Positions 1,070-36,403 of a DNA stretch of 36,403 nt are shown here, in pieces. The notes beneath the pieces were generated by a model. It was given only the letters and a program-made list of their open reading frames with translations, was not told where the DNA came from and did not search any database. Every line of letters begins with the position of its first letter. The stretch's first letter is position 1. A program made the translations under genes and the position numbers. The DNA is from a virus (Duplodnaviria; Heunggongvirae; Uroviricota; Caudoviricetes), in IMG/VR virus record IMGVR_UViG_2675903318_000021; one strand, given 5' to 3'.

Positions 1070-1543
1070 TGTATTTGTATTTTGTTAAATGGCGGTAAAG
1101 TGGCGATGGTGTGGCGATATGCAGAAATAATGATAGTACACGTCTGTTTAAACTCTAAGGGTGAAGCAAAACTCTCCTGCAACTCATCTGCATTTCGCAT
1201 ATTGAACTAGGGCCTTGGTTAAACCAAAGTTTTTTCTGGGATCTTCCCACTCAACTTCATTTTTCCTCCTACCATCCACCAAAAGGTGTCTGCGCTACTC
1301 TATCTTTTTTAATCTGACAACATCCTGAGAAAAAGACAAATTCGTTAGATTTACTGTCTTTCTGCTGCCTCGAATGCTGATGTCTGCAGCACTGATAATA
1401 ACTCTATCTCTTTGATATAGATCTTTTTTTTGATGAATTGCACGGCATATTATCGTGATGGCACCTTCTTGTTAAAGGTGTTGTACTCCTCATCTCGATT
1501 TTATGATGTGGGCTATGATTGGTTAGTAATAGAGTGTATCGGT

Positions 1544-1825
1544 ATGCGATGTGGTTTATTAATGGCAATCTGCCTTTGTTTGGTATCTTTTAGTGGGTAT
1601 GCAGCAACAGGAAAGTCAGATGCTCAGATCAAGAAAGAAATAATTAAAGAATCCATTGAATCTTATCCAGGCAATTGTGCGTGTCCGTATAATCATGCAA
1701 GGAATGGTAGTAGATGTGGTGGACGCAGTGCATATAGCCGTACTGGAGGGTATGACGTGGTATGTTATGAAAGTGATGTTACCGATGAAATGATCCGGCA
1801 ATGGAAGCAGGAGAATGCTGAGTAA
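1544..1825 (+). CDS. small secreted Cys-rich protein (signal peptide MRCGLLMAICLCLVSFSGYA; motif CACPYNHARNGSRCGGRSAY); function unknown; ORF as listed could start at 1430
   Basis: AT-rich ORF; hydrophobic N-terminal signal-like segment from the internal Met at 1544; several conserved-looking Cys; followed by a hairpin terminator. Confidence 0.45.
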   Translation: MRCGLLMAICLCLVSFSGYAATGKSDAQIKKEIIKESIESYPGNCACPYNHARNGSRCGGRSAYSRTGGYDVVCYESDVTDEMIRQWKQENAE

Positions 1826-2155: not shown

Positions 2156-2344
2156 AGCGCTTGCTCCTTTGTTGGAGAGGCGCTAACCTATCACTTGCTA
2201 GGTTGACGGGTTAGGGCCTCGGTTAAACAGAAATGTTTTCCGGGGCCTTTCCACATCCGGCCTTCGGGTATTCCCTCCGACCATCAGCCGAAAGGCACCC
2301 GCACGTAATCTATCGCTTTTTTGTTACTCCGGCAATTCTGCCTG

Positions 2345-2605
2345 TTAATTCTGAGGTAAAGGCAAACTCATCTGATTGTTTCCCCTGTGTGAAGCTGGCA
2401 GCTCATGCCACGGGATACCTTCTGATGAGTGAACGCCGGAGGCGTGTTTCGATGTGAATTTATGGAAAGCTTCCAGTGTTGAGAAGCATACGCCGCATTC
2501 CAGGTTGTTACACTGGTAATACTTTTGCCGCACGGTGTTTGAATCATTTTCCGGACGACTGGTGCGGATACGGGCAGATGCGCCACAAAGCGGACAACGG
2601 AACAT
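2345..2605 (-). CDS. ogr: Ogr/Delta-family zinc-finger late gene transcriptional activator
   Basis: Small ORF beginning MFRCPLCG...YYQCNNLECG (two Cys pairs, Ogr-like), directly downstream of D on the same strand as in P2; AAGGAGG RBS. Confidence 0.8.
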   Translation of the reverse strand: MFRCPLCGASARIRTSRPENDSNTVRQKYYQCNNLECGVCFSTLEAFHKFTSKHASGVHSSEGIPWHELPASHRGNNQMSLPLPQN

Positions 2606-2647
2606 AGCGACCTCCTTTAACGTGGTGCTGCCGCTATTCTAAGTTGC

Positions 2648-3757
2648 TCACTCTGTTTCCGCTATCCATTCCGGGATTTTTGCCTCAAGCTCAAGCTGCG
2701 TGGTAAAGCCGCTGTTATCAATGGTGTGCTCGGCTTTTGCAATAATCCAGTCCTGATTATCAATCTCGCTTTTAAATCCTGTTACCGTGCCATGCATTTC
2801 GGGGTAGAGTTCTGCTCGTCCACGTGCCAGCGTGATGGAGAATGATGCGGCTCCGCGTTGTAGTTGTTGCCACTTTGCCGCCGCTGCGCGTCTTGCTGCC
2901 TGCTCGTTCTGATAAGTCTTGCGTAACACAAACACATTGCCTTCCGCGCCTTCCATATAATCACCTTCACGGCTGCTGCTTTTCTCTTTTTTCGGTTTTG
3001 GCGGTTTGCGGCGTTTCACGCTGACTTTTTTCTTTTTCCCGTAATTAAGATCAAGCCAGTAAGCGCGTACCCCCGTATACGCCTCGCGGTCAGCAATGCG
3101 GAACTGATGGCGATCGCCGCTGCTGCGTGTGATGGCGAACGATGGCAACGGCTGGCCCTGTGCGTTCACGCCACCGCCGGGCATGATGAATAACAGATTA
3201 CCGCTTTTTACCGTGGTGATTGCGCCCAGCATTTCCGCCATGCGCGTAAGGAAGGACATGTCACTTTCTTCGGTCTGGTCGGCGTGGTCGATTTCGATAT
3301 CCATCAGCATTTCGCTGATTTGCGGTTTCAGACCGTACCGATGAGCGATGGCGGATACCACACGCTCAACGGTCACATCATGCCAGGACACCTCACGTTT
3401 AACGTTAAATTCATCCCGAAAATCTGCGCTTCTGGCTGAAACAGTCAGCCTGTCCGGCGGTCCTTCGTGTGCGATTTCATCAACAATGTAAGAGCCTTTT
3501 TCTGTCAGCGGTTCGCCTTTCCAGCCAATGAGAACCGTCAGGCGCGCGCCCCGTGGCGGTAGCCGCAACTGACCATCCGCATCATCCAGCGTGATGGTGA
3601 GCTGGTCTGCCTCAAATCCCCGGTTGTCGGTCAGCGACAGGCTCATCAGGCGCTCTGCCACGCCGGACAGCGTTTTACCCTCCGCGAGAATATCAAAATC
3701 CGGCATTTTTACGGGGTCTGTGCCCTGACTGAGCAATTGCATGGTGGTGTCGGTCAT
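2648..3757 (-). CDS. D: phage late control / tail protein D (gpD-like)
   Basis: Translation from Met at 3757 (MTDTTMQLLSQG...) recognised as P2 gpD-like; GGGAGGG RBS upstream of this Met; ORF track extends spuriously to 3889. Confidence 0.85.
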   Translation of the reverse strand: MTDTTMQLLSQGTDPVKMPDFDILAEGKTLSGVAERLMSLSLTDNRGFEADQLTITLDDADGQLRLPPRGARLTVLIGWKGEPLTEKGSYIVDEIAHEGPPDRLTVSARSADFRDEFNVKREVSWHDVTVERVVSAIAHRYGLKPQISEMLMDIEIDHADQTEESDMSFLTRMAEMLGAITTVKSGNLLFIMPGGGVNAQGQPLPSFAITRSSGDRHQFRIADREAYTGVRAYWLDLNYGKKKKVSVKRRKPPKPKKEKSSSREGDYMEGAEGNVFVLRKTYQNEQAARRAAAAKWQQLQRGAASFSITLARGRAELYPEMHGTVTGFKSEIDNQDWIIAKAEHTIDNSGFTTQLELEAKIPEWIAETE

Positions 3758-3914
3758 CTGTTCCCTCCCTGTGCGGCATGGTCGCATGTGCGTGCGGAGG
3801 GGGTTACTGCTTTTTGTTGTCGCCGGGTCGGGAGAACGGCGCAGGGGTGAGATTACGCGCGTGGTGGGTGATGATTGTTGCCGAATCATTTAACGGATAC
3901 AAGGGGCTGAAGCT

Positions 3915-5099
3915 ATGAGTGAAACTCGTTTTCATGGTGCCCGTGTTACGGAAAATACCGACCTGGTAACAGCGATTAACGATGTTGATTCCAGCGTTAT
4001 CGGTATCGTGGCAACGGCGGATGATGCGGACGCGAAGCTGTTCCCGCTGAACAAGCCTACACTGCTGACCCGCGTCAATGACGTGCTGGGAAAATGCGGA
4101 ACAACGGGGACGCTTTATCGTGCGCTTAAGGCCATCGCAGACCAGGTGAGCACAAAGGTGATCGTCGTTCGCGTGGCTGAACACAAAGAAGAAGACGGTA
4201 AGACGCAGGATCAACTGGTTATCGGTGGTTCTGAGGATGACGGCAGCTATACGGGGATGTATGCGCTGCTTGTTGCAGAGCAGGATGAAAGCATCGGATA
4301 CCGTCCGCGTATTCTGGCCGCGCCGGAGCTGGACACGGAGGCGGTGACAAAATCCCTGTGCGTGATTGCGGGTAAACTGCGCGCGTTTGTGTATGCCACA
4401 TGTCATGGTTGTAACACGATGGCTGAGGCGATTACCTACCGCCAGAAATTCAACGAACGTGAGGTGATGCTCTTATGGCCTGACTTCATCGCCTACAACC
4501 CGAAAAGTGGCAAAAACGAAACGTTCCCCGCGCCTGCTTATGCGTGCGGCCTTCGTGCGTACATTGACCATGAGCAGGGCTGGCACAAATCGCTGTCCAA
4601 TGTTCCGGTTAAAAATGTGCTGGGAATGTCCAGGCATGTGTTCTGGTCGTTGCAGGCCGAAGACAGTGATGCCAACAGCCTCAATAACAAAGAAATCACG
4701 ACCATTATTCGTCGCAACGGGTTCCGCTTCTGGGGCAACCGCACACCGGAAACGAACGCCTACATCTTTGAGGTGTATACCCGAACCGCACAGGTGCTGG
4801 CTGATTCAATTGCGGAAGCGCAGTTTGAAACCATCGACAGTCCACTGACGCCTGCGAACGTGAAGGATGTTATCAGTGCCATCAGGGCAAAACTGGATTC
4901 GCTGGTTACTGCCGGGAAACTGATTGGTGCGGAGTGCTGGTATGACGTGGTGGATAACGGCACCACGGATTTACGTCAGGGACGTGTGCGTATTCGCTAC
5001 AAATATACGCCCGTTCCGCCACTGGAAGACATGGAGCTTTACCAGACGTTTACCGATGAATTCTTTGGTCCCGCATTTGCGGTGCTGGGAGGTGCCTGA
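3915..5099 (+). CDS. FI: contractile tail sheath protein (gpFI-like)
   Basis: 394-aa ORF; N-terminus and length match P2 FI-type sheath proteins; stop overlaps next start (ATGA). Confidence 0.9.
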   Translation: MSETRFHGARVTENTDLVTAINDVDSSVIGIVATADDADAKLFPLNKPTLLTRVNDVLGKCGTTGTLYRALKAIADQVSTKVIVVRVAEHKEEDGKTQDQLVIGGSEDDGSYTGMYALLVAEQDESIGYRPRILAAPELDTEAVTKSLCVIAGKLRAFVYATCHGCNTMAEAITYRQKFNEREVMLLWPDFIAYNPKSGKNETFPAPAYACGLRAYIDHEQGWHKSLSNVPVKNVLGMSRHVFWSLQAEDSDANSLNNKEITTIIRRNGFRFWGNRTPETNAYIFEVYTRTAQVLADSIAEAQFETIDSPLTPANVKDVISAIRAKLDSLVTAGKLIGAECWYDVVDNGTTDLRQGRVRIRYKYTPVPPLEDMELYQTFTDEFFGPAFAVLGGA

Positions 5100-5611
5100 T
5101 GGCTGTGCCAAAACATCTTCGCTTTTTTACGTTGTTTGTGGATGGTGAAAACGAAGTGGGCAAAGTGACATCCGTCACGCCGCCCAAACTGACGCGCAAA
5201 ACCGACAGCTATCGTGGTGGTGGCATGATGGGGGCGGTAAGTATTGATCTCGGTCTGGACGACTCCGCGCTTGATGCGAGTTTTGTTATGGGGGGAGCTG
5301 TTCGTGCGCTGTTCCTTAAATATGGCGGCACGATTGACGGCACGCTGCTGCGTTTTGCGGGTGAATACTACACCGATGCAGAAAGCGATCTGTATGAGAT
5401 CGAGATGCGCGGGCGTGTGACGGAAATTGATATGGGGGAAGCCAAACAGGGGGAAGCCACATCACACACTTACGCTGTCAAAAACACCTACTACAAGCTG
5501 AGCGTTAACGATCGCCCGCTGTGGGAAATCGACCTGTTGAACCACATCTACCGGAAGGACGGCAAGGACATTGTGCCTGACCGTATCCGTTCCGCGCTTG
5601 GGCTTGGCTGA
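5099..5611 (+). CDS. FII: tail tube protein (gpFII-like)
   Basis: 170-aa ORF immediately after sheath; P2 FII-like length and sequence. Confidence 0.88.
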   Translation: MAVPKHLRFFTLFVDGENEVGKVTSVTPPKLTRKTDSYRGGGMMGAVSIDLGLDDSALDASFVMGGAVRALFLKYGGTIDGTLLRFAGEYYTDAESDLYEIEMRGRVTEIDMGEAKQGEATSHTYAVKNTYYKLSVNDRPLWEIDLLNHIYRKDGKDIVPDRIRSALGLG

Positions 5612-5666
5612 TAAGTAATATGCAGGCGGCGCAGTGCGTCGCCTCTGACTGAAAAGGAGACAACTG

Positions 5667-6041
5667 ATGAAAGACATCGATACTGAAACCCGGAATAACA
5701 CCGTGGCGGATGATGTGACGGCAGGTGAGGATATGGCTGTCGAACGTGGCGTAAAACTGACCCGACCAATTGAGCGTGGTGGCGAAAAAATCACGTATGT
5801 GGAGATCACCGGGGCTATTGAGCAGGCTGGATCCCTGCGTGGTCTGTCGCTGTCTGATGTGCTGAATCTGAAAGCGGATACCATGTTTATGCTGTTGCCT
5901 CGCGTGACCTCGCCACGACTGGATGAAGTGATGATTAAAAAAATGTCGTCACGCGATTTTATTCAGTTGTGCGCTGTGGCTGTAAATTTTATGAGCGAGC
6001 CAGACTCTGGCGCGAAGAGCGTGCAGGAGACGGCAGCGTAA
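5667..6041 (+). CDS. E: tail assembly chaperone gpE-like
   Basis: 124-aa ORF with AAGGAG RBS, located between tube and tape-measure genes; gpE-like. Confidence 0.8.
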   Translation: MKDIDTETRNNTVADDVTAGEDMAVERGVKLTRPIERGGEKITYVEITGAIEQAGSLRGLSLSDVLNLKADTMFMLLPRVTSPRLDEVMIKKMSSRDFIQLCAVAVNFMSEPDSGAKSVQETAA

Positions 6042-6205
6042 TCACCCTGGTGTGCTTTGAGCACATCGAAGATCTGGTGGCGGATATTGCCGCCATTTTT
6101 AACTGGTCGCCCGCCGAAATCTTCATGATGACGCCCGGCGAAGTGGTTAGCTGGCGCGAGCGGGCGGCACTTCGCAGCGGGAATGCAGATAATGAAGACT
6201 CTTGA
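5984..6205 (+). CDS. E' extension, expected to be expressed as an E+E' fusion by -1 ribosomal frameshift (candidate slippery heptamer A_AAT_TTT at 5984-5990; alternative slip on the A7 run at 5937-5943)
   Basis: -1 frame is open from 5939 to 6205 and overlaps the 3' part of E and the start of T, as for the P2 E/E' pair; no independent start with RBS. Confidence 0.6.
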   Translation, partial: KFYERARLWREERAGDGSVITLVCFEHIEDLVADIAAIFNWSPAEIFMMTPGEVVSWRERAALRSGNADNEDS

Positions 6206-8999
6206 TATCCGGGTCGCTTTCAGCGCCGTTGACAGGCTGATCCGGCCTGCCGAAAACGCCCGCCGCCTGATGGGGCAGTTTGGTGACTCCATCCAGCGAA
6301 CGCAGGGGGCGATTAAAAATCTCGAGCGTCAGGCGCGTTCATTTGAGCGCGCCCGTGACGCTGTCAGTAAAGCGGATGCTGGCATCGTGAAAGCACGACG
6401 CCAGCTTAACGCCCTTAATCAGTTACAACGTACGGGTACAGTGCTCAGCGAAAAACAACAAAAGCTGATGCAGCAGTTAAGCACCCGGCTTGAACGCCTG
6501 AATGAATCGCGCACACGGGAAATTCAAAAAATGCGGGAGCTTGGCGGAGAGCTGAAACGCCACGGCATTTCCCTGACAGGCAGCGATAACACCATCCAGC
6601 AGGCCATCAGACGCACCGAACAGTACAACAACCAGCTTGAACGCGAACGGCAGGCGCTTGCGCGTGTAACGCGGGCGCGTGAGCGGTATTCGCGCGCGCA
6701 GGAAACAGCGGGAAAACTGAAAACAGGTGGTGCACTGGCAATTGGTGCGGCAGCGGCGGGCGGCTATGCTGCCGGGCGTTTTTTGCAGCCTGCGATCGGG
6801 TTCGGCAAAGAGATGTCCCGCGTTCAGGCACTGACGCGAATCGACAAAAACAGCCCGCAGTTTAAGGCGCTGCGTGAGCAGGCGTTAAAACTTGGATCTG
6901 AAACACCGTTTACTGCGAGTGATGCCGCCAGTGGGCAGAGCTTTCTGGCAATGGCTGGTTTTACTCCGCAGGCCATTCAGGCCGCATTGCCCGGTGTTCT
7001 TAATATGGCGCTGGCAGGTGGCGTCGAACTCGGCGAGACGGCTGATATAGGCTCCAATATCCTCACACAGTTCAACCTGACAGCCGATCAAATGGACCGG
7101 GTTGGCGATACGCTGACAGCGGCATTCACCCGGACCAATACTGATTTACGCGCGCTGGGCGAAACCATGAAGTATACCGGTCCGGTTGCCGCAAAACTTG
7201 GTATCAGTCTTGAAGAAGCGGCAGCCATGGCCGGGATGCTTGCCAGTAATGGTCTTCGTGGAAGCGATGCTGGTACGGCCATGCGCGCAAGTCTGTCCCG
7301 CCTTGCATCACCGCCAAAAGCTGCGGCTGATGCGCTGAAAGAGCTGGGGGTGTCAGTTGCTGACGCCAGGGGCAAAATGCGCCCGATGGAGGATGTGCTG
7401 CTTGATCTCTATAAGGCGACACAAAAATACGGACAGGTGGACCAGGTTTCCTTCTTCAAGGACATCGCCGGAGAAGAGGCGTTCGTTGGTTTGCAGACGC
7501 TTGTTGCGGCGGCTGGTTCAGGAGAGCTGCAAAAACTGACCAGAGAATTGCAGGGGGCAAGGGGAGAGGTCGATCGCGTCGCAAAAGTAATGGCCGATAA
7601 TCTTGATGGGGACCTGAAAAATCTCGACAGCGCATGGGAAGGTCTTCGTATTCGCATCAGTGATCTGGTTGACGGTCCGCTGCGTTCTGTCACGCAGTGG
7701 CTCACGCGGGTGCTTGAAAAAATCACCTCGCTGGCGCAGGCCCATCCGGTACTGACACGCCAGCTACTGATAGCAGGCGGTGCGTTGCTGGCAATGACTG
7801 CAACGATTCGCTCGTTGTCGCTGGTTATTGGGGTGCTTTACGGAAAGCTGGCCACCCTGCGTCTTGGTTTTGACATTCTTACCCGGTCAATGAATGTCGT
7901 CAGGGTGTTGCCTGCGCTGTGGGGAATGCTGACGGGTTCCGTTTCTTTGCTGGGAGGCGCTATCGGGGCGCTGTTCAGTCCGGTTGGTCTTATCGTGGCT
8001 GCGCTTGCCGGAGCTGCCGTTCTTATCTGGAAATACTGGGATCCCATCAGGGCATTTTTTGCCGGGGTGTTCAGCGGGATTATGGAAAGGCTGACCCCGT
8101 TGCGCGAAACCTTTGAACGGTTTGGCCCTGTTTTTGACGCAATCGGAAGCGGGATCAGCCAGGTGTTTAACTGGTTTAAATCGCTGCTGTCACCGATGGA
8201 GTCCAGCAAGGAAACGCTGGATAAATGTACCAGTGCTGGCGAGATATTCGGTAACGTTCTTGGCGGTGCGTTACAACTTGTTCTGACACCTGCAAAAATG
8301 CTACTGGATACGCTGGCGTGGATACTTGAAAAACTTGGCGTCCTTCCGGATGAAGCTGAAAGGGCGCGCAAGAAAATCGAAGACGCACAGCGTGCGGCCA
8401 TTCTTCGGGACAAGGTTGCCTTACTTCAGGGGGACCTGGCGAAAATCAATCCGCCGAAGCCTGTGGAAAATGGCAATGGCACCGGAGGTGATAAACCCAA
8501 AGACAACAAACCGCTCACAGACAGCAATACCGGGACGCTACGCAGACTCAGCAAAATTGCTGATAACACAGGTAAGCTGGTTGATGAGACGAAAAAACGC
8601 ATTGGCCCCGGCGATATTGTCTTTAAGAACCTGCCCCGCGCACTTGCTGTTCGTGGGGAGTGGCAGGAGCGGAAGATTGCGCAGGTCAGTAAGCCTGCCC
8701 CCGCAATTAATATCACCCCCGTGGTCCCGGCACCGCTGCCTCCGGCGCTGGTCCCTGTTGTTGCGGCCAGCTCCCGCCCGGTGGCGGAGGCCATACGATC
8801 TCCAGTGGCATCAGTTCCTGTAACTTCCCGTAACCGGGAGCCTGTTGCCTCCGGATTTGGTGGTGAAATTCATGTTCATCTGCATAACGTTGTTACGCAG
8901 AATCCCCGCGAACTGGCGAAACTGGTCGGTGAAATGGTCAGGGCAGAAATGGAACGGCGTGCCCGTGCCGGGCGTGGCAGTTTTTACGATAAAGATTGA
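6183..8999 (+). CDS. T: tail tape measure protein (gpT-like)
   Basis: 938-aa ORF, coiled-coil-rich N-terminus, hydrophobic central segment, position after E/E'. Confidence 0.9.
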   Translation: MQIMKTLDIRVAFSAVDRLIRPAENARRLMGQFGDSIQRTQGAIKNLERQARSFERARDAVSKADAGIVKARRQLNALNQLQRTGTVLSEKQQKLMQQLSTRLERLNESRTREIQKMRELGGELKRHGISLTGSDNTIQQAIRRTEQYNNQLERERQALARVTRARERYSRAQETAGKLKTGGALAIGAAAAGGYAAGRFLQPAIGFGKEMSRVQALTRIDKNSPQFKALREQALKLGSETPFTASDAASGQSFLAMAGFTPQAIQAALPGVLNMALAGGVELGETADIGSNILTQFNLTADQMDRVGDTLTAAFTRTNTDLRALGETMKYTGPVAAKLGISLEEAAAMAGMLASNGLRGSDAGTAMRASLSRLASPPKAAADALKELGVSVADARGKMRPMEDVLLDLYKATQKYGQVDQVSFFKDIAGEEAFVGLQTLVAAAGSGELQKLTRELQGARGEVDRVAKVMADNLDGDLKNLDSAWEGLRIRISDLVDGPLRSVTQWLTRVLEKITSLAQAHPVLTRQLLIAGGALLAMTATIRSLSLVIGVLYGKLATLRLGFDILTRSMNVVRVLPALWGMLTGSVSLLGGAIGALFSPVGLIVAALAGAAVLIWKYWDPIRAFFAGVFSGIMERLTPLRETFERFGPVFDAIGSGISQVFNWFKSLLSPMESSKETLDKCTSAGEIFGNVLGGALQLVLTPAKMLLDTLAWILEKLGVLPDEAERARKKIEDAQRAAILRDKVALLQGDLAKINPPKPVENGNGTGGDKPKDNKPLTDSNTGTLRRLSKIADNTGKLVDETKKRIGPGDIVFKNLPRALAVRGEWQERKIAQVSKPAPAINITPVVPAPLPPALVPVVAASSRPVAEAIRSPVASVPVTSRNREPVASGFGGEIHVHLHNVVTQNPRELAKLVGEMVRAEMERRARAGRGSFYDKD

Positions 9000-9005
9000 G
9001 GAGTC

Positions 9006-9500
9006 ATGGCCATGATGATGATCTACGGCATGTTTGTTTTTGAGCTGCGCACGCTGCCGCATCAGCAGTTACAGCAAAACAAAAGCTGGCGGCATGTGAA
9101 AAATGAACGCGTTAACCGTTCAGCAAGCTGGCAGTATATCGGTGCAGGTGATGATCGCATCGTTCTTTCTGGTGTGCTTTATCCTGAAATTACAGGTGGC
9201 GAAGTGTCGCTGTCGCTGCTGACCACGCAGGCGTATACAGGACGACCCTGGCCTTTGATTGATGGCGTCGGGCAGATTTACGGCATGTATGTCCTGACTG
9301 AAACGAATACGACCCGCTCCGAGTTTGATCGCTACGGTAAGGCGAAAAAGATAGAATTTTCACTGACTCTTGAACGCTGTGATGAGGATTTGCGGGAGCG
9401 CCTGCAATCCTCATCGTTCAGCGATATGTTGTCCGGCTTCAAAGATAAGGTGACATCATCCCTTAATAGCGCGGCCAGCTCAGTTAAGGGGCTGCTCTGA
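9006..9500 (+). CDS. U: tail protein gpU-like
   Basis: 164-aa ORF following tape measure with GAGGAG RBS; gpU-like. Confidence 0.85.
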   Translation: MAMMMIYGMFVFELRTLPHQQLQQNKSWRHVKNERVNRSASWQYIGAGDDRIVLSGVLYPEITGGEVSLSLLTTQAYTGRPWPLIDGVGQIYGMYVLTETNTTRSEFDRYGKAKKIEFSLTLERCDEDLRERLQSSSFSDMLSGFKDKVTSSLNSAASSVKGLL

Positions 9501-9656
9501 TTTAACGTATGTCGCCAATTTCCTGATGAAGGTGACTGGCGACTTGCTGTTGTATGTCCTTCTCAGAAAATTGTTTTTGAATAACAAATAACAGGATTTT
9601 ATAATCTCTTAACCTTATAACATGTGTGGTCTGAAATAATAATTAAGGAGATTTTC

Positions 9657-10229
9657 GTGCTGTCTTACTTAATGGCAATTCACTTTGTTTTATTTGGGAA
9701 CTCTACTAATTTAAAAAACTTCTGGAAACATGAAGTAATTCGGCGGAAACGTATGGATATCTGGAGGCTTTTAAGAGAGAAAAAGCAGCGTAACCGGAAT
9801 TTCCTTTTCTGGTGGCGGTTGGCTAACGAAATGTATATTAATGGTAATAAATTACATAAAAAAGCAGCCAAAAAGTTAAACAGTAAAATAATTAACAAAT
9901 TTGGTTGTGAAATAGGATTGGGAGCAAATATTGGAAAAGGGTTAACAATTCCCCATCATGCTGGAATTGTTGTTCATTTTGCTGTTGATGCAGGTGAAAA
10001 TCTGGTATTACGACAGAATACTACGATTGGACAGATAGATGGTGACATACCTGGTTCAAGAGTAAAAATTGGTAGTAACGTTGATATCGGAGCTAATTGT
10101 TGCATCATTGGATTATCACGTAAAATCGGGGATAATGTAAAAATAGGCGCAATGTCTTTTATAAATAAAGATATACCATCGAACTGCACATATATAACTA
10201 AAAAGAGCGGTGTTGTATTGTATAAATAG
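9657..10229 (+). CDS. hexapeptide-repeat (left-handed beta-helix) acetyltransferase, WcaB/CysE-like; cargo gene in the Z/fun-equivalent slot
   Basis: AT-rich ORF; AAGGAG RBS 6 nt before GTG at 9657 (ORF track starts at 9624); repeated [LIV]-G-x-x-x-x hexapeptide pattern (GCEIGLGANIGKG, IGSNVDIGANCCIIG, IGDNVKIGAMSFI). Confidence 0.7.
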   Translation: MLSYLMAIHFVLFGNSTNLKNFWKHEVIRRKRMDIWRLLREKKQRNRNFLFWWRLANEMYINGNKLHKKAAKKLNSKIINKFGCEIGLGANIGKGLTIPHHAGIVVHFAVDAGENLVLRQNTTIGQIDGDIPGSRVKIGSNVDIGANCCIIGLSRKIGDNVKIGAMSFINKDIPSNCTYITKKSGVVLYK

Positions 10230-10236
10230 AGCACAT

Positions 10237-10266
10237 AAAGCCATCGATATTTCTATCGATGGCTTT
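10237..10266. terminator. bidirectional hairpin terminator between acetyltransferase (+) and gene G (-)
   Basis: Perfect inverted repeat AAAGCCATCGATA-TTTC-TATCGATGGCTTT flanked by T runs. Confidence 0.7.
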
Positions 10267-10272
10267 TTCTTT

Positions 10273-10851
10273 TTATTGTGGGGCGACTGGCCACTCAATA
10301 TCCGCTGCTACTGTTGTATCAACACGATTCAACAATACCCGATATGTCTTCCATGCAGCCAGTAACGATGCCTCTTCTTCCGTCGCAATATCCAAATCTA
10401 CAGCATCCTGAAGTGGCGCAATATGCTCGCTAGCTACCTGCATCAGGCTGTTTTTTGTTTCTTCCGCCTCCTGGCTCCGAAACAGTTTTTCTGCTTCTGC
10501 ATCTTTCACCCAGGATGTACCGTTCCACTTCTGAAACTCCCCTTCCGGGGATAACCAGGTGACATTTTCCGGTAATGGGCCAAGTTCAGAAATAAATAAC
10601 GCGTCGCCGGAAGCCACGTCATAGACGGTATAACCCCGATGGTCTTCAACGAGATGCCACGATGCCTCATCAGTGTTGAAAACAGCCACGAAGCCAGCCG
10701 GAATATCTGGCGGTGCAATATCGGTACTGTTTGCAGGTAGACCTGTATGAGGTGGAATATATGCGTCACCGTCACCAATAAATTCATTAGTTCCGGCCAG
10801 CAGATTATAAATTTTGAGGGTTCGTGATTGTTTACTCATTCTGAATGCCAT
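10273..10851 (-). CDS. G: tail fibre assembly protein (gpG-like)
   Basis: 192-aa ORF directly downstream of the fibre gene with overlapping stop/start. Confidence 0.8.
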
Positions 10852-13121
10852 TATGCAAGCCTCACAATATAGTTAAATGCGATGTTTTTGACGGTGTTTT
10901 CCGCGTTACCAGCAGCGTTTACGGTGATGGTGTGTCCATGTGAGCCAATCGCAACGGAGTGCGTGTGTGCACCAATACCGACAGTGTGCTGATGAGAACC
11001 AATACCTACAGTATGAGAATGTGAGCCAGAGGAACCTGTTGTTGCTGATGTATATTGAGTTGCCAGACGCCCAGATGTCAGTGGAATTTTCCCCCACTGG
11101 TTTGCACCATCTGATGTTGGTATTGAATGCGTGTGACTCCCGGCGTTACTGGTAGTTTTGGTCCCATAGTCAAATAGTGAGGTTGTTTTCGTCCCGTAAT
11201 CAAACGACGATGTGGTTTTCGTACCCAAATCCGTACTGGATACGCTGGCGCTGTGGGTGTGCGATTTAATGCCGTCCTGTTCCTGAGACAATACGGCACG
11301 ACCACTGGCGGGCTTGCCCTTAATCGTCCAGCCACGCATATCAGGGATCACGCCTGACGGATAAGCGGCTGCAAGTTTCGGGTAGGCAGATTTGTCAAAA
11401 GTCTGCCCCTGCATCAGGGCATAACCAGACGGAACGGTATCTGATGGCCACGGGATTGGTGCACCGACTGGATAAAACTCTGCAGGAGGATGAGCCGAGG
11501 TGTAAAGCTGCGCCCACGGCGACCAGTTTGCGTCGGTCGTATCCCGTCGTGAACGAATAAATGCCGGAGCATGAGCACCGCTTGTACCACTCCAGCCGAT
11601 GAGTAACTCACCTTCGCCAACGGCTGTCATCCCTTTCAGGTGAATGATATTTCCATACGCTGTTGGATATCCGTTGTTATACACCTCGTATAACTCAAGA
11701 CCTGTTGCCCCCTGCGTATTGTCTGTCAGCGCGGTTACCTGACCTTTTGAAGCCAGATTAACTGATGATACTGCTGTTCCACCTGACGGTAACGCCCCGA
11801 TCTCTGATGCCGTTGGCTTATTTCTGGAGTTATAGTCCCTTCGCCAGCCAGGTGAATAATCTGTTCCGTGATTAATATAGGTAAACTGGGCGTTAGTTGT
11901 TCCACCACCAGTGGAGGTGGTCGGTGTGGTAATGCGGATCGTCATCGCTGACTTTATCCCCATTACTTCAATGACAGCTCCGGCGAGATGAATATTACCG
12001 CAGTCAGTATCAGTAATGATTTTATTATTGCCATAAGACCAGGAACCCTTGCACATCCAGTATGGATGGTTAAATGCTCCCTGAGAATCCAGCCACTCGA
12101 TAAACTGTGCAGTCGTCCAGTTTCCTGTTGTTGTGCTTACTGACCCACCGAAGGCACGGCAGGCACCAATATTTTTCGTAAAGGTGTCTTTGCCAGGGAT
12201 ATCCGCACCGTTCTGATCTTTCTGCAGACGTTTCTCAGCATTGTCATAGGCTGTTTTTACTGCCTTTGGTGTCGCGGCAAGCGTTTCAGATGTGCTGTTG
12301 GTCGCGCTGCTTAGCTGGATTATCCCTTTCTGTGCTGTTGTTGCATCCTGTGCGGTGTATTTCCCGTTAGCCAGGTCATAGGCTGCCTTTACCGCCTTTG
12401 GTGTTGCCGCCAGCGTTTCTGAATCGCTGTTGGTGGCGCTACTGAGCTGGACAATGCCTTTTCGCGCTGTAGTGGCGTCCTGTGCGGTATATTTCCCGTT
12501 AGCAAGGTCATAGGCTGCCTTGACCGCTTTCGGCGTTGCGGCCAGTGCTTCAGACGTGCTGTTGGTGGCGCTACTGAGTTGAACAAAGCCTTTTGCGGTC
12601 AGCGAGGCGTCCGGGTGACGTCGTGACTGTTCATGTTCTTTCAGTTTGTCATTCACGTAATCCACTGTGGCCATAACCATGGTGTTATCCACGGTAAGCG
12701 CCACGGTGGCAGTGCTGGATACGGTCAGAATGGTGCGAAATGTTTGTGCACGTCCGGATCCTTCGGCAACGGCTGGCTTGTAACTTTCGGCAGTATTGCC
12801 CACCGCGATCAAATCGCCGTGCTCATCAAATACACCAATTTCCCGGATCCAGAATCCGCCCGTTTCAGGAGGAATAACCAGCTCCGCAATAATGCGGTTC
12901 TGATGTGTTGCGTCCAGGATGACGCGATTAACAGTATGTCGCCACACCTCATGCACCAGACGGGTCTGCTTACTGTCTGGTGTGGGCAACGTGCCGCCAC
13001 CGTCGCCCACGGCCATGTGAGTCAGGTGGACAGGATTACCATCTGGCGCGGCTGCCTGAGCTAATTTTTTGGCACCAGTATCAGTGATAATGGTTTTAAA
13101 TTTTCGTGTTGTGGTACTCAT
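10851..13121 (-). CDS. H: long tail fibre protein (gpH-like) with internal tandem repeats and His-rich C-terminal repeats
   Basis: 756-aa ORF; conserved P2 H-like N-terminus; three 44-aa tandem repeats; C-terminal HTHS/HxH and [10 protein letters not shown] repeats. Confidence 0.85.
12243..12620. repeat. three tandem ~132-bp repeats inside the tail fibre gene (encode 44-aa repeat VQLSSATNS...[10 protein letters not shown])
   Basis: Direct visual alignment of three consecutive units starting at about 12243, 12375 and 12507. Confidence 0.8.
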
Positions 13122-16567: not shown

Positions 16568-16844
16568 GGTTGTTGTCCTCGTTGTTCAGTCGTTGCAGCC
16601 GGCGCTGTTCCAGTAATTCAATGGCCCGTTTATCCGCGTTACAGGTTTCCAGTGCATCCAGAAGGCGGTCGCCCCATATACCGAGATTTCCCCATGTGGG
16701 AGTATCAGGGAAGGGGGGAGGCATTACCGGTATGGTCAGCGTCTGCGGTATAAGCCGGACTGACGGCGCTGGCCGTGGCGCGTTCTGCGTGCCTGCGCAA
16801 CCTGTCAGTAAAACGAGCGTCAGGCAAAGCGTGGGCGCATTCAT
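16554..16844 (-). CDS. outer-membrane spanin lipoprotein (Rz1/LysC-like), nested in +1 frame within the i-spanin gene
   Basis: From Met MNAPTLCLTLVLLTGCAG: lipobox LLTGC, Pro-rich mature region; overlaps 3' end of the Rz-like ORF. Confidence 0.65.
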   Translation of the reverse strand: MNAPTLCLTLVLLTGCAGTQNAPRPAPSVRLIPQTLTIPVMPPPFPDTPTWGNLGIWGDRLLDALETCNADKRAIELLEQRRLQRLNNEDNNHAEN

Positions 16845-17112
16845 CTTTTGCAATATCGTTGCGTAGCTGTTCACGTCTGGCCTCTCCGTCCTGATTGCGT
16901 TGCTGATTTTCCGCGCGGAGTTGTGCCAGCACCTGCTGCATATCCTGTACCCCGGCGCTGATGATATTCAGGGTGTCGGCGGTACTTTTCAGGGCGCTGG
17001 CCTGCGCTTCGTTTCTGGCGTTCTCCCGACCCAGCGACCACGACAGACGCATGGATGTTCCCCATGCGGCAATCAGAAGGAAAGCGACACCCAGCGTGGG
17101 CCAGAGCTTCAT
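16705..17112 (-). CDS. inner-membrane spanin (Rz/LysB-like)
   Basis: From Met MKLWPTLGVAFLLIAAW (N-terminal TM) then coiled-coil; ATGA overlap with endolysin stop. Confidence 0.7.
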   Translation of the reverse strand: MKLWPTLGVAFLLIAAWGTSMRLSWSLGRENARNEAQASALKSTADTLNIISAGVQDMQQVLAQLRAENQQRNQDGEARREQLRNDIAKDECAHALPDARFTDRLRRHAERATASAVSPAYTADADHTGNASPLP

Positions 17113-35401: not shown

Positions 35402-36403
35402 ATGTCGGTTCGTAAGATTCCATCAGGTAAATGGCTTTGCGAATGTTATCCCTACGGGGCATCGGGAAAACGCATTCGTAAACAGTTTGCGACAAAAAGT
35501 GAGGCGCTCTCTTATGAGCGCCGTTTAATGAATAGTAGAGTTGGAGACGAGTTTCAAGATGGTTCTGGTCCTCGTCTTTCTGAGTTGATTGCTCGTTGGT
35601 TTGAGATGTACGGTAAAACCTTGTCCTCTGGTGCAGAGCGCAAAGTCAAACTTGAGGCGATTTGTTCCAGGCTGGGAGATCCATTTGCTTCTCAGTTTGA
35701 CAAAAATATGTTTGCCACTTATCGGGAAAGAAGGCTATCAGGAGAATGGAATCCCAAGGGGAAGAAAAAACTTAGTGAAGCAACCGTTAATCGCGAGCAG
35801 TCATATCTACATGCTGTTTTTGCCGAACTGAAGCGCCTTGGGGAGTGGTCTGGTGAAAACCCCCTGACTGGTATTCGCAAGTTTCGTGAGGAAGAAAAGG
35901 AACTGGCGTTTCTGTATGTAGATGAGATTGAACGCCTTCTGATTGCGTGTGATGAGTCACGGAATAAAGATTTGGGGGTTGTTGTCCGTATTGGGCTTGC
36001 GACTGGTGCTCGGTGGAGTGAAGCAGAAGGATTAAAGCAATCTCAAGTACTGCCCGGTCGAATCACATTTGTTAAAACTAAAGGAAAGAAGAACCGCACT
36101 GTACCGATTTCACCTCAATTGCAGGCTATGCTTCCCAAAAAACGAGGAGCGCTATTTTCACCATGTTATGAGGCTTTTGACGCTGCAATTAAGAGAGCGA
36201 AGATCGAGCTTCCTGATGGGCAATTAACTCATGTGCTACGTCACACGTTTGCCAGTCATTTTATGATGCGGGGCGGAAATATTCTTGTGTTGCAAAAAAT
36301 ACTGGGGCATAGCGATATAAAAATGACTATGCGTTATGCGCATTTTGCTCCAGGTCATTTAGAGGCTGCTGTTGAATTGAACCCTTTTGACAATAGAGGG
36401 TAA
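35402..36403 (+). CDS. int: tyrosine-type site-specific integrase (P2/186 Int-like)
   Basis: 333-aa ORF ending at the window edge; C-terminal catalytic region with R...HxxR...Y pattern (VLRHTFASHFMMRGG...MRYAHF). Confidence 0.9.
   Translation: MSVRKIPSGKWLCECYPYGASGKRIRKQFATKSEALSYERRLMNSRVGDEFQDGSGPRLSELIARWFEMYGKTLSSGAERKVKLEAICSRLGDPFASQFDKNMFATYRERRLSGEWNPKGKKKLSEATVNREQSYLHAVFAELKRLGEWSGENPLTGIRKFREEEKELAFLYVDEIERLLIACDESRNKDLGVVVRIGLATGARWSEAEGLKQSQVLPGRITFVKTKGKKNRTVPISPQLQAMLPKKRGALFSPCYEAFDAAIKRAKIELPDGQLTHVLRHTFASHFMMRGGNILVLQKILGHSDIKMTMRYAHFAPGHLEAAVELNPFDNRG

Follow-up and report, generated by a model that had tools for sequence, protein, structure and literature searches.

An old, fixed inversion of the tail sheath-to-U block in a P88-like P2-family prophage, with a candidate bidirectional late promoter between D and FI

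The window, by which we mean the whole 36,403-nucleotide stretch of viral DNA analysed here, encodes homologs of Q, P, O, N, M, L, X, R, S, V, W, J, I, H, G, FI, FII, E, T, U, D and ogr (26–73% identity when compared by tblastn with annotated P2 and 186). Genes were called from open reading frames with Pfam and PHROG, and the identities of the tail genes are backed by Pfam matches. On the minus strand, ogr (2345–2605) encodes an Ogr/Delta-type zinc-finger late activator of 86 amino acids, which matches phrog_603 (transcriptional regulator, E 4e-15) and shares 36–38% identity with P2 Ogr and 186 B in tblastn. A 72-aa frame at 2368–2586 was rejected as ogr, as it has no Pfam match whereas the 86-aa frame matches the Ogr-type PHROG. 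On the same strand lies D (2648–3757), which encodes the baseplate hub or late control protein D of 369 aa (Pfam Phage_GPD, phrog_52), 49–50% identical to the D proteins of P2 and 186 (tblastn). Its ATG at 3757, just preceded by the Shine–Dalgarno sequence GGGAGGG, agrees with the phiSM and P88 annotations; a 413-aa frame reaching 3889 was rejected as D, its upstream extension being absent from homologs.

The sheath-to-U block is encoded on the plus strand. It comprises the tail sheath gene FI (3915–5099; Pfam Phage_sheath_1, Gp18_domIII_N and sheath_1C; 45% identity with P2 FI), the tail tube gene FII (5099–5611; Phage_tube, E 2e-45), the tail assembly chaperone gene E (5667–6041; a weak Phage_TAC_7 match and 35% identity with P2 E) and its extension E′, a −1 frame ORF at 5969–6205 assigned from the frame relation and the P88 annotation; by likeness to P2, E and E′ are presumably related by a frameshift. 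The tape measure gene T (6183–8999; PhageMin_Tail, E 1e-56) and the tail protein gene U (9006–9500; Phage_P2_GpU, E 6e-39) complete the block. Convergent with U, and closing the long minus-strand late operon, are tfa/G (10273–10851) and the tail fibre gene H (10851–13121), which together carry the Pfam set Caudo_TAP, Phage_tail_fib, Phage_fiber_2 and Collar.

Between U and tfa lies a plus-strand hexapeptide acetyltransferase gene (9657–10229; Hexapep, phrog_2154), which the original prediction had placed in the Z/fun slot in P2-like orientation. That assignment was mistaken, as the gene belongs to an unrelated low-GC moron (9577–10266; GC 0.37) that promoter and terminator scans bound with a sigma70-like promoter (9577–9605) and a hairpin terminator (10237–10266), both on the plus strand. 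The cassette is 91% identical to one in phages Ro157c2YLVW and JL22 and accompanies a lambda-like tfa/fibre module that is also present in unrelated phages.

The arrangement FI-FII-E/E′-T-U (3915–9500) on the plus strand, with D, ogr and the G-to-O genes on the minus strand, had been read from the sequence at the outset and is borne out by ORFs, Pfam/PHROG and tblastn. Against annotated P2 and 186, FI–U is collinear with the P2 plus strand and the rest, namely D, ogr and the genes from G to O, is reversed; one inversion of the 5.6-kb FI–U segment alone explains the map. The canonical co-oriented unit FI-FII-E-T-U-D-ogr is not found in the window, where FI–U stands opposite to D and ogr. P2 and 186 (Peduovirus, Eganvirus) have the same gene set and the same order within each block, with 33–60% amino-acid identity to the window, but there FI-FII-E-T-U-D is one operon on the strand of V–G and ogr, and U and D overlap; in the window, D lies 5.2 kb away from U on the opposite strand.

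Its sequence places the window among the P88-like (Xuanwuvirus) prophages of E. coli, within the P2 family. P88 and other Xuanwuvirus members (P884B11, 500465-2, PhiR44_2, Chuche and Citrobacter phage Shae_phiSM) share 93–96% nucleotide identity with it over ogr-D-FI-U, in one unbroken piece of 7.3 kb, and the structural proteins are 94–100% identical through the late region. These phages also match the window in order and orientation: D, ogr and the fibre-to-head operon share one strand, and FI–U occupies the other. ParM/ParR-like genes are common to them and the window, as is a replication gene of the P2 type; the cargo and the fibre-distal region differ. The same divergence of D and FI, in which the strand opposite to D carries U-T-E-FII-FI, is seen in SEN4/5 (Senquatrovirus), ST16-OXA48phi5.4 (Reipivirus), phiT5282H (Novemvirus), 3LV2017 (Reginaelenavirus) and Serratia phage KSP20, which belong to other genera, carry other cargo between U and the fibre genes and have D proteins 63–77% identical to that of the window.

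The inverted layout is thus present in five ICTV Peduoviridae genera, and canonical FI-to-ogr synteny is a trait of P2 itself rather than one that defines the family. Of 5426 complete E. coli genomes, 1355, about a quarter, are collinear with the window across the left (D/FI) junction. Species-representative genomes from more than 20 Enterobacterales genera supplied 80 loci with a D homolog, of which 51 have the inverted layout and 28 the canonical one, and the identity of D to the window protein is at least 61% in the former and at most 54% in the latter. The implication of the original prediction that the arrangement is peculiar to this prophage is therefore wrong; the prevalence check that it had proposed returned the outcome it had named as a refutation, a lineage trait common across a large clade.

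D and FI diverge across a spacer of 157 bp (exactly 3758–3914, read directly from the sequence), and the spacer is 122–198 bp long over the 51 related loci. Ogr/Delta/B-dependent late promoters of P2 carry a partial dyad, TGT-N12-ACA, centred about 55 bp upstream of the transcription start, and are activated by a phage zinc-finger protein acting via the alpha subunit of RNA polymerase. An exact scan for TGT-N12-ACA returned five sites, fewer than chance would give, none of them at the start of an operon. The D/FI dyad emerged only when the D/FI and O/P spacers were compared and the clade was aligned. In the 51-sequence alignment, a putative Ogr-type activator dyad lies at 3818–3835 (centre 3826.5), reading TGT-N12-ACA in 29 sequences and TGT-N12-AGA in 18; AGA is the form in the window and, as far as sequence can tell, the one its lineage uses. 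There is a single dyad per spacer, and the 51 diverged spacers align without indels to about 50 bp on either side of it.

Flanking the dyad are two −10-like hexamers, from which, together with the conserved geometry, we infer two promoters and their dependence on Ogr. On the FI side, GATGAT (3870–3875, plus strand; consensus gAttAT) occupies +43.5 to +48.5 from the dyad centre in 51/51 sequences and would belong to a promoter PF of the FI operon. Its mirror on the D strand, GACCAT (3778–3783, minus strand; −48.5 to −43.5), falls in a column with the consensus AAnCAT, free of indels in all 51 sequences, and would belong to a promoter PD. Both hexamers are placed as for transcription starts at about ±55 of the centre, with the reservation that the window dyad is AGA and not an exact ACA. 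The D side of the spacer also bears the CGCGCGCG block, as does the P side of the O/P spacer. This geometry points to a late promoter that fires in both directions and by which D would stay under late control. D was originally predicted to need a promoter of its own; we agree, and a candidate appears to be present in the spacer.

It could instead be that D has no Ogr-dependent promoter on the PF dyad and is read from an unrelated constitutive or early promoter, or from an antisense promoter inside FI. We regard this as unlikely, although it is the most credible of the alternatives considered here. The D-side hexamer GACCAT is weak as a −10 in the window, D would have a leader of only about 14 nt, the dyad has AGA in place of the canonical ACA, and a sigma70 consensus scan of 2200–4100 gave nothing relevant, including in 3758–3914. 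Activator-dependent P2 late promoters, however, lack sigma70 −35 elements, so an empty scan is what would be expected of them. Moreover, the mirror hexamer and its strict spacing are kept across the 51 diverged spacers even though the D start codon lies at varying distances from the dyad, and the layout of CGCGCGCG plus hexamer recurs in the O/P region, on its P side, and at the promoter in the S–V gap of SEN4.

A single dyad between D and FI is matched by a second at the O/P divergent spacer (21451–21468, centre 21459.5), recognised as a putative activator site by comparison with the D/FI spacer. It shares with the D side of D/FI a 34-nt distance to its −10 (TAATCT) and the CGCGCGCG block, and exact copies of TTGTTGT-N12-AGAAC occur in these two spacers only. 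A near-copy of the D/FI site was found inside the Rz-like spanin gene (17020–17043); considered as a PV equivalent, it has neither TGT nor a −10 at the right distance. Unlike P2 and 186, the window has no S–V intergenic gap for a PV promoter, whereas SEN4 keeps the gap, with a perfect TGT-N12-ACA site.

Each neighbour-joining tree of D, FI, FII and U contains the bipartition of inverted and canonical lineages, whereas the trees of the baseplate genes J and I lack this split; the ‘clade’ is therefore a lineage of the tail-shaft and D module and not of whole genomes. The mosaicism of tailed-phage genomes, and the evident exchange of J and I between inverted and canonical lineages, could invite the reading that the original tail shaft was replaced by a foreign cassette, taken from another myovirus lineage and inserted in reverse. 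We consider this improbable. FI–U is as close to P2 (33–46% amino-acid identity) as are the head genes and D (35–50%), with the same holding for 186, and D, which lies outside the block, splits as cleanly between the two lineages as FI, FII and U do. The gene order within the block is kept, and so is the spacing between dyad and FI (88.5 bp, compared with about 83 bp in P2).

There is next to no chance that a site-specific recombinase, such as a Gin/Cin-like invertase, turns the 5.6-kb block as a programmed invertible segment. P88 and phiSM do carry a DNA invertase directly downstream of U, next to an alternative fibre/tfa segment, but it serves the fibre segment; the window has there the acetyltransferase moron with a lambda-like tfa and fibre C-terminus, and no serine invertase gene was found between U and tfa by ORFs and Pfam. 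SEN4, the Reipivirus phage and the Reginaelenavirus phage are inverted with no adjacent invertase. The block lacks flanking inverted repeats (none was found pairing 3758–3914 with 9501–9656), and the opposite orientation, sought with a synthetic un-inverted U-to-D junction, occurs in 0 of 1414 E. coli genomes, as against 1355 genomes with the D/FI junction. A strain-specific event or a misassembly, the latter raised at the outset, can be dismissed as hardly conceivable, since both junctions are 100% identical in the complete chromosome NZ_CP027388.1, the right junction is collinear in 495 complete E. coli genomes besides the 1355 with the left, and independently sequenced phages have the same layout.

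Wide distribution, clean trees of FI, FII, U and D, no un-inverted junction and no inverted repeats therefore identify an ancient fixed inversion rather than a switch, an assembly error or a module of foreign origin. The flip of FI–U is an old and fixed trait of the P88-like group, and hence ordinary. Very probably, then, this P88-like prophage descends from an ancestor in which FI–U was inverted once, became fixed and was co-inherited with D, with the dyad most likely serving divergent PF and PD. The FI-FII-E/E′-T-U block would have been turned long ago, with one breakpoint between U and D and the other upstream of the activator site of PF, and would have stayed so ever since, passing down together with D. 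The event would have brought the symmetric Ogr-binding dyad of PF to about 70 bp upstream of D, where it most likely drives two divergent late promoters with starts about 55 bp from its centre, PF reading FI–U and the new PD reading D, with read-through into ogr. The dyad would be shared just as, in P2, a single site serves both PP and PO. ogr would retain a small promoter of its own, for which TAGAAT (2636–2641, minus strand), in the 42-bp D–ogr spacer, is the candidate −10-like hexamer; a hexamer of TAGAAT/TATAAT/CATAAT/TATACT type is conserved through the inverted clade at about 35 nt before the start codon of ogr.

A broader proposal, to which we give an even chance, is that the late regulon of P88-like phages and of the wider tail-shaft and D clade may run on two bidirectional Ogr sites only, O/P and D/FI, with four promoters. 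The inversion of FI–U would have been tolerated since the symmetric activator site moved upstream of D and created an Ogr-dependent PD, and the near-copy inside Rz could be a relic, or a weak internal promoter replacing the lost PV.

The arrangement itself carries little weight as a discovery; it can be seen in public annotated genomes of phages from KSP20 and P88 onward, and in about a quarter of complete E. coli genomes. It is not mentioned in the papers on P88 (PMC5285337), SEN4 (PMC5261728), the C. rodentium prophages (PMC6456863), Serratia PP4 (PMC9826266) or the Xenorhabdus tailocin (PMC13280938), and we found no paper stating it in words, Casjens and Grose 2016, the review likeliest to describe it, lying outside the scope of that search. 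For prophage annotators and synteny-based classifiers, D divergent from FI should not be read as an anomaly or an assembly error, and the orientation of FI–U relative to D is a clean binary marker, Enterobacterales-wide, of a deep lineage of the tail-shaft and D module. The most useful result is the candidate bidirectional D/FI promoter, inferred from sequence geometry, which suggests that a symmetric activator site can let an inversion split an operon while its regulation is kept.

The regulatory arrangement proposed here has close parallels in P2 and 186. Like the window, both encode a zinc-finger activator (Ogr/B) and have a control region between divergent P and O that contains a single activator site, centred in P2 and 186 about 55 bp from both starts; their annotated ogr/B promoters lie at the same place as the candidate ogr promoter. 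PP/PO of P2 (p12/pV of 186) is a single partial-dyad site between two divergent late operons, as D/FI would be, and its annotated centre in P2 is 55–56 bp from both transcription starts. In P2 PP/PO and in the window spacers, the −10 elements are symmetric and about 44–49 bp from the centre, and the spacers are alike in size, at 173 bp in P2 and 154–157 bp in the window; the half-site is ACA in the P2-type site and AGA in the window lineage. The D/FI pair itself has no counterpart in P2, and the architecture that its sequence points to is that of PP/PO.

The genes and strands of the window, a P2-like E. coli prophage, were established from an ORF map, Pfam and PHROG matches and direct reading of the sequence. 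On the minus strand lie ogr (2345-2605) and D (2648-3757), separated by 42 bp with ogr downstream. The tail-shaft block occupies the plus strand and comprises FI (3915-5099), FII (5099-5611), E (5667-6041, plus a -1 frame ORF extending to 6205), T (6183-8999) and U (9006-9500), followed by a hexapeptide acetyltransferase gene (9657-10229). The minus strand resumes with tfa/G (10273-10851), the tail-fibre gene H (10851-13121) and, beyond H, I, J, W, V, S, R, the lysis genes, X, L, M, N and O, in that order; P and Q are on the plus strand past O. Since D starts at 3757, with a GGGAGGG Shine-Dalgarno sequence in front, the spacer between D and FI is exactly 157 bp (3758-3914). When the window proteins were compared by tblastn with the annotated P2 and 186 genomes, FI through U were collinear with the P2 plus strand and all other late genes, D and ogr included, were reversed. 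One inversion of the FI-U block thus describes the difference from P2, and the original prediction of this layout, with D and FI divergent across 157 bp and only the FI-U segment inverted, is borne out.

Plasmid-style maintenance genes are present, though the prophage is integrated and has an integrase (35402-36403). They are a hok/mok-like small membrane toxin ORF (1430-1825, plus strand) near the ogr-proximal end, where the P88 annotation has a MokW-like host-killing gene, and a ParM/ParR-like partition pair (25928-27203, minus strand) adjoining the replication gene.

The inverted layout is a lineage trait, as its distribution and protein trees show. A D alignment was searched against a single genome from each bacterial species, and the best 80 loci were taken. 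Among these, 51 have the inverted layout, with V W J I H G followed by U T FII FI on the opposite strand and then D and ogr, and every D is at least 61% identical to that of the window; in the 28 canonical loci, no D exceeds 54%. The inverted loci span more than 20 genera, including Salmonella, Citrobacter, Klebsiella, Enterobacter, Kosakonia, Pantoea, Erwinia, Pectobacterium, Brenneria, Serratia, Yersinia, Hafnia, Edwardsiella, Morganella, Providencia, Xenorhabdus, Photorhabdus and Symbiopectobacterium. Neighbour-joining recovers the exact inverted/canonical bipartition for each of D, FI, FII and U, but not for the baseplate proteins J and I, for which some inverted-clade loci are up to 77% (J) and 94% (I) identical to canonical-clade loci. 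The trait therefore marks a deep lineage of the tail-shaft and D module, and these identities indicate that the two lineages have exchanged the baseplate and fibre module by recombination. The original note had named a large clade with this orientation as the finding that would reduce it to a lineage trait, and such a clade is what these loci show.

The window prophage is P88-like (genus Xuanwuvirus, family Peduoviridae). Its ogr-D-FI-U region is 93-96% identical to those of P88, P884B11, 500465-2, PhiR44_2, Chuche and Citrobacter phage Shae_phiSM, all with the inverted arrangement, which is shared by Salmonella phage SEN4 (Senquatrovirus), Klebsiella phages ST16-OXA48phi5.4 (Reipivirus) and 3LV2017 (Reginaelenavirus), Enterobacter phage phiT5282H (Novemvirus) and the partial record of Serratia phage KSP20. 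D is at least 63% identical to that of the window in 48 of 523 phage records with a D homologue; the next-best matches reach only 53%. A chimeric U+D query placed U next to D, both on one strand, in 388 of 521 phage records, among them P2, PSP3, L-413C and phages of Burkholderia, Ralstonia, Acidovorax and Xanthomonas. In NC_049344 (520873) and NC_049341 (503458), both close relatives, an IS21-family (IS100-like) element inside the ogr-to-U region splits the match into pieces.

Other origins of the layout were rejected. The block is not a foreign module: its amino-acid identity to P2 and 186 (33-46%) is similar to that of the head genes and D (35-50%), so it has been in the genome as long as the other genes have. 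As for an invertible switch, no inverted repeats pair the left and right junctions of the block, and a synthetic 'un-inverted' junction, built from the final 450 nt of U and the initial 450 nt of D, occurs as one place in none of the 1414 E. coli genomes having both halves; the orientation is therefore fixed. Misassembly is ruled out: the complete chromosome of E. coli 2011C-4251 matches the window at 100% identity across both junctions, and of 5426 complete E. coli genomes, 1355 match the D/FI junction (3300-4400) collinearly at ≥95% identity and 495 are collinear over the U-tfa junction, acetyltransferase included.

One earlier proposal, that the acetyltransferase sits in the Z/fun slot and keeps the P2-like relative orientation, did not hold, as it is no Z/fun counterpart. 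The gene lies in a segment of low GC (0.37) with its own sigma70-like promoter (TTGAAT-17-TATAAT, 9577-9605, plus strand) and a strong hairpin terminator with a 13-bp stem (10237-10266, plus strand), both found by sequence scan. The gene, the neighbouring tfa and the fibre C-terminus recur as one cassette, at 91-92% identity, in two unrelated phages, vB_EcoM-Ro157c2YLVW and JL22. The acetyltransferase is possibly a lysogenic-conversion gene for surface acetylation. H is itself chimeric: its N-terminal ~298 residues are P88-like (93%), and its C-terminal part, like the tfa, matches the lambda stf/tfa region at ~90% identity. Where the window has the acetyltransferase and lambda-like tfa, P88 and phiSM have a Gin/Cin-like DNA invertase together with a different fibre/tfa pair.

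The original note pointed out that D and ogr must have a promoter of their own. The D/FI spacer itself is inferred to be a bidirectional late promoter with a shared activator site. We aligned 51 non-redundant spacers of the inverted clade by anchoring on the element TTGTTGT-N12-AGAAC. Each holds a single Ogr-type dyad (TGT-N12-ACA in 29, TGT-N12-AGA in 18, the window among them, and close variants in 4), and indels are absent to ~50 bp on each side despite high divergence otherwise. A -10-like hexamer (consensus gAttAT; GATGAT in the window, 3870-3875, plus strand) lies on the FI side at +43.5 to +48.5 from the dyad centre, mirrored on the D side at -48.5 to -43.5 by AAnCAT (GACCAT in the window, 3778-3783, minus strand). 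The window half-site is AGA, not ACA, and its D-side hexamer is weak. This geometry would place the transcription start of FI-U at ~3882 and that of D at ~3771, which suggests that the inversion brought the symmetric activator site of PF, the putative FI operon promoter, to a position immediately ahead of D, from which it would now serve both directions. Antisense ORFs, small or long, called across this spacer and the FI 5' end (3804-4406, minus strand, in the window; gp50 of P88, L001 2529-2660) carry the label 'hypothetical protein' in the annotations of P88 and of many E. coli genomes. These calls lie over the conserved promoter region and the start of FI, and are probably spurious.

The anchoring element occurs exactly twice in the window, in the D/FI (3814-3837) and O/P (21447-21470) spacers; at no other window site is the dyad accompanied by a GT prefix, by a CGCGCG block and, 34 nt downstream, by a -10-like hexamer. 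The CGCGCGCG block on the D side recurs on the P side of the O/P spacer and in a promoter-like element of the SEN4 S-V gap. In the window S and V overlap, without the PV promoter gap found in SEN4 and P2. The mechanical ORF of the scaffold protein O begins at 21411 (minus strand), upstream of the predicted start of its late promoter PO; the second Met, at 21378 (MANEKK...), has a Shine-Dalgarno sequence, agrees with the P2 gpO N-terminus (MAKK...) and the P88 annotation, and gives an O/P spacer of 154 bp, nearly that of D/FI. A 23-nt near-copy at 17020-17043 (minus strand), inside the gene for an Rz-like spanin (16705-17112), equals the D/FI activator site at 21 positions (GTGGTCGCTGGGTCGGGAGAACG versus GTTGTCGCCGGGTCGGGAGAACG), far beyond chance. 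In it GGT replaces TGT and the -10-like hexamer 34 nt downstream is absent; this near-copy could be a remnant, or else a weak promoter within the gene that drives Rz1-R-S-V. A candidate ogr promoter has a -10-like TAGAAT (2636-2641, minus strand) ~35 nt before the ATG, kept across the inverted clade as TAGAAT, TATAAT, CATAAT or TATACT; P2 and 186 likewise have annotated promoters for ogr and B.

In the publications consulted, which deal with P88, SEN4, phiSM, a Serratia relative and Xenorhabdus tailocins, the inversion goes unremarked. As the arrangement is plain in annotated public records and very common, it is already known and of little interest in itself; only modestly new are the predicted bidirectional D/FI promoter and a late regulon that would accordingly run from just two such regions, which varies a design already described. 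P88 and other Xuanwuvirus members, the closest known entities, are the same as the window apart from the cargo after U. The nearest known mechanism is the shared activator site of the divergent PP/PO promoters of P2 (p12/pV in 186), where a single annotated site centred at 3072 lies 56 and 55 bp from the divergent starts at 3016 and 3127.
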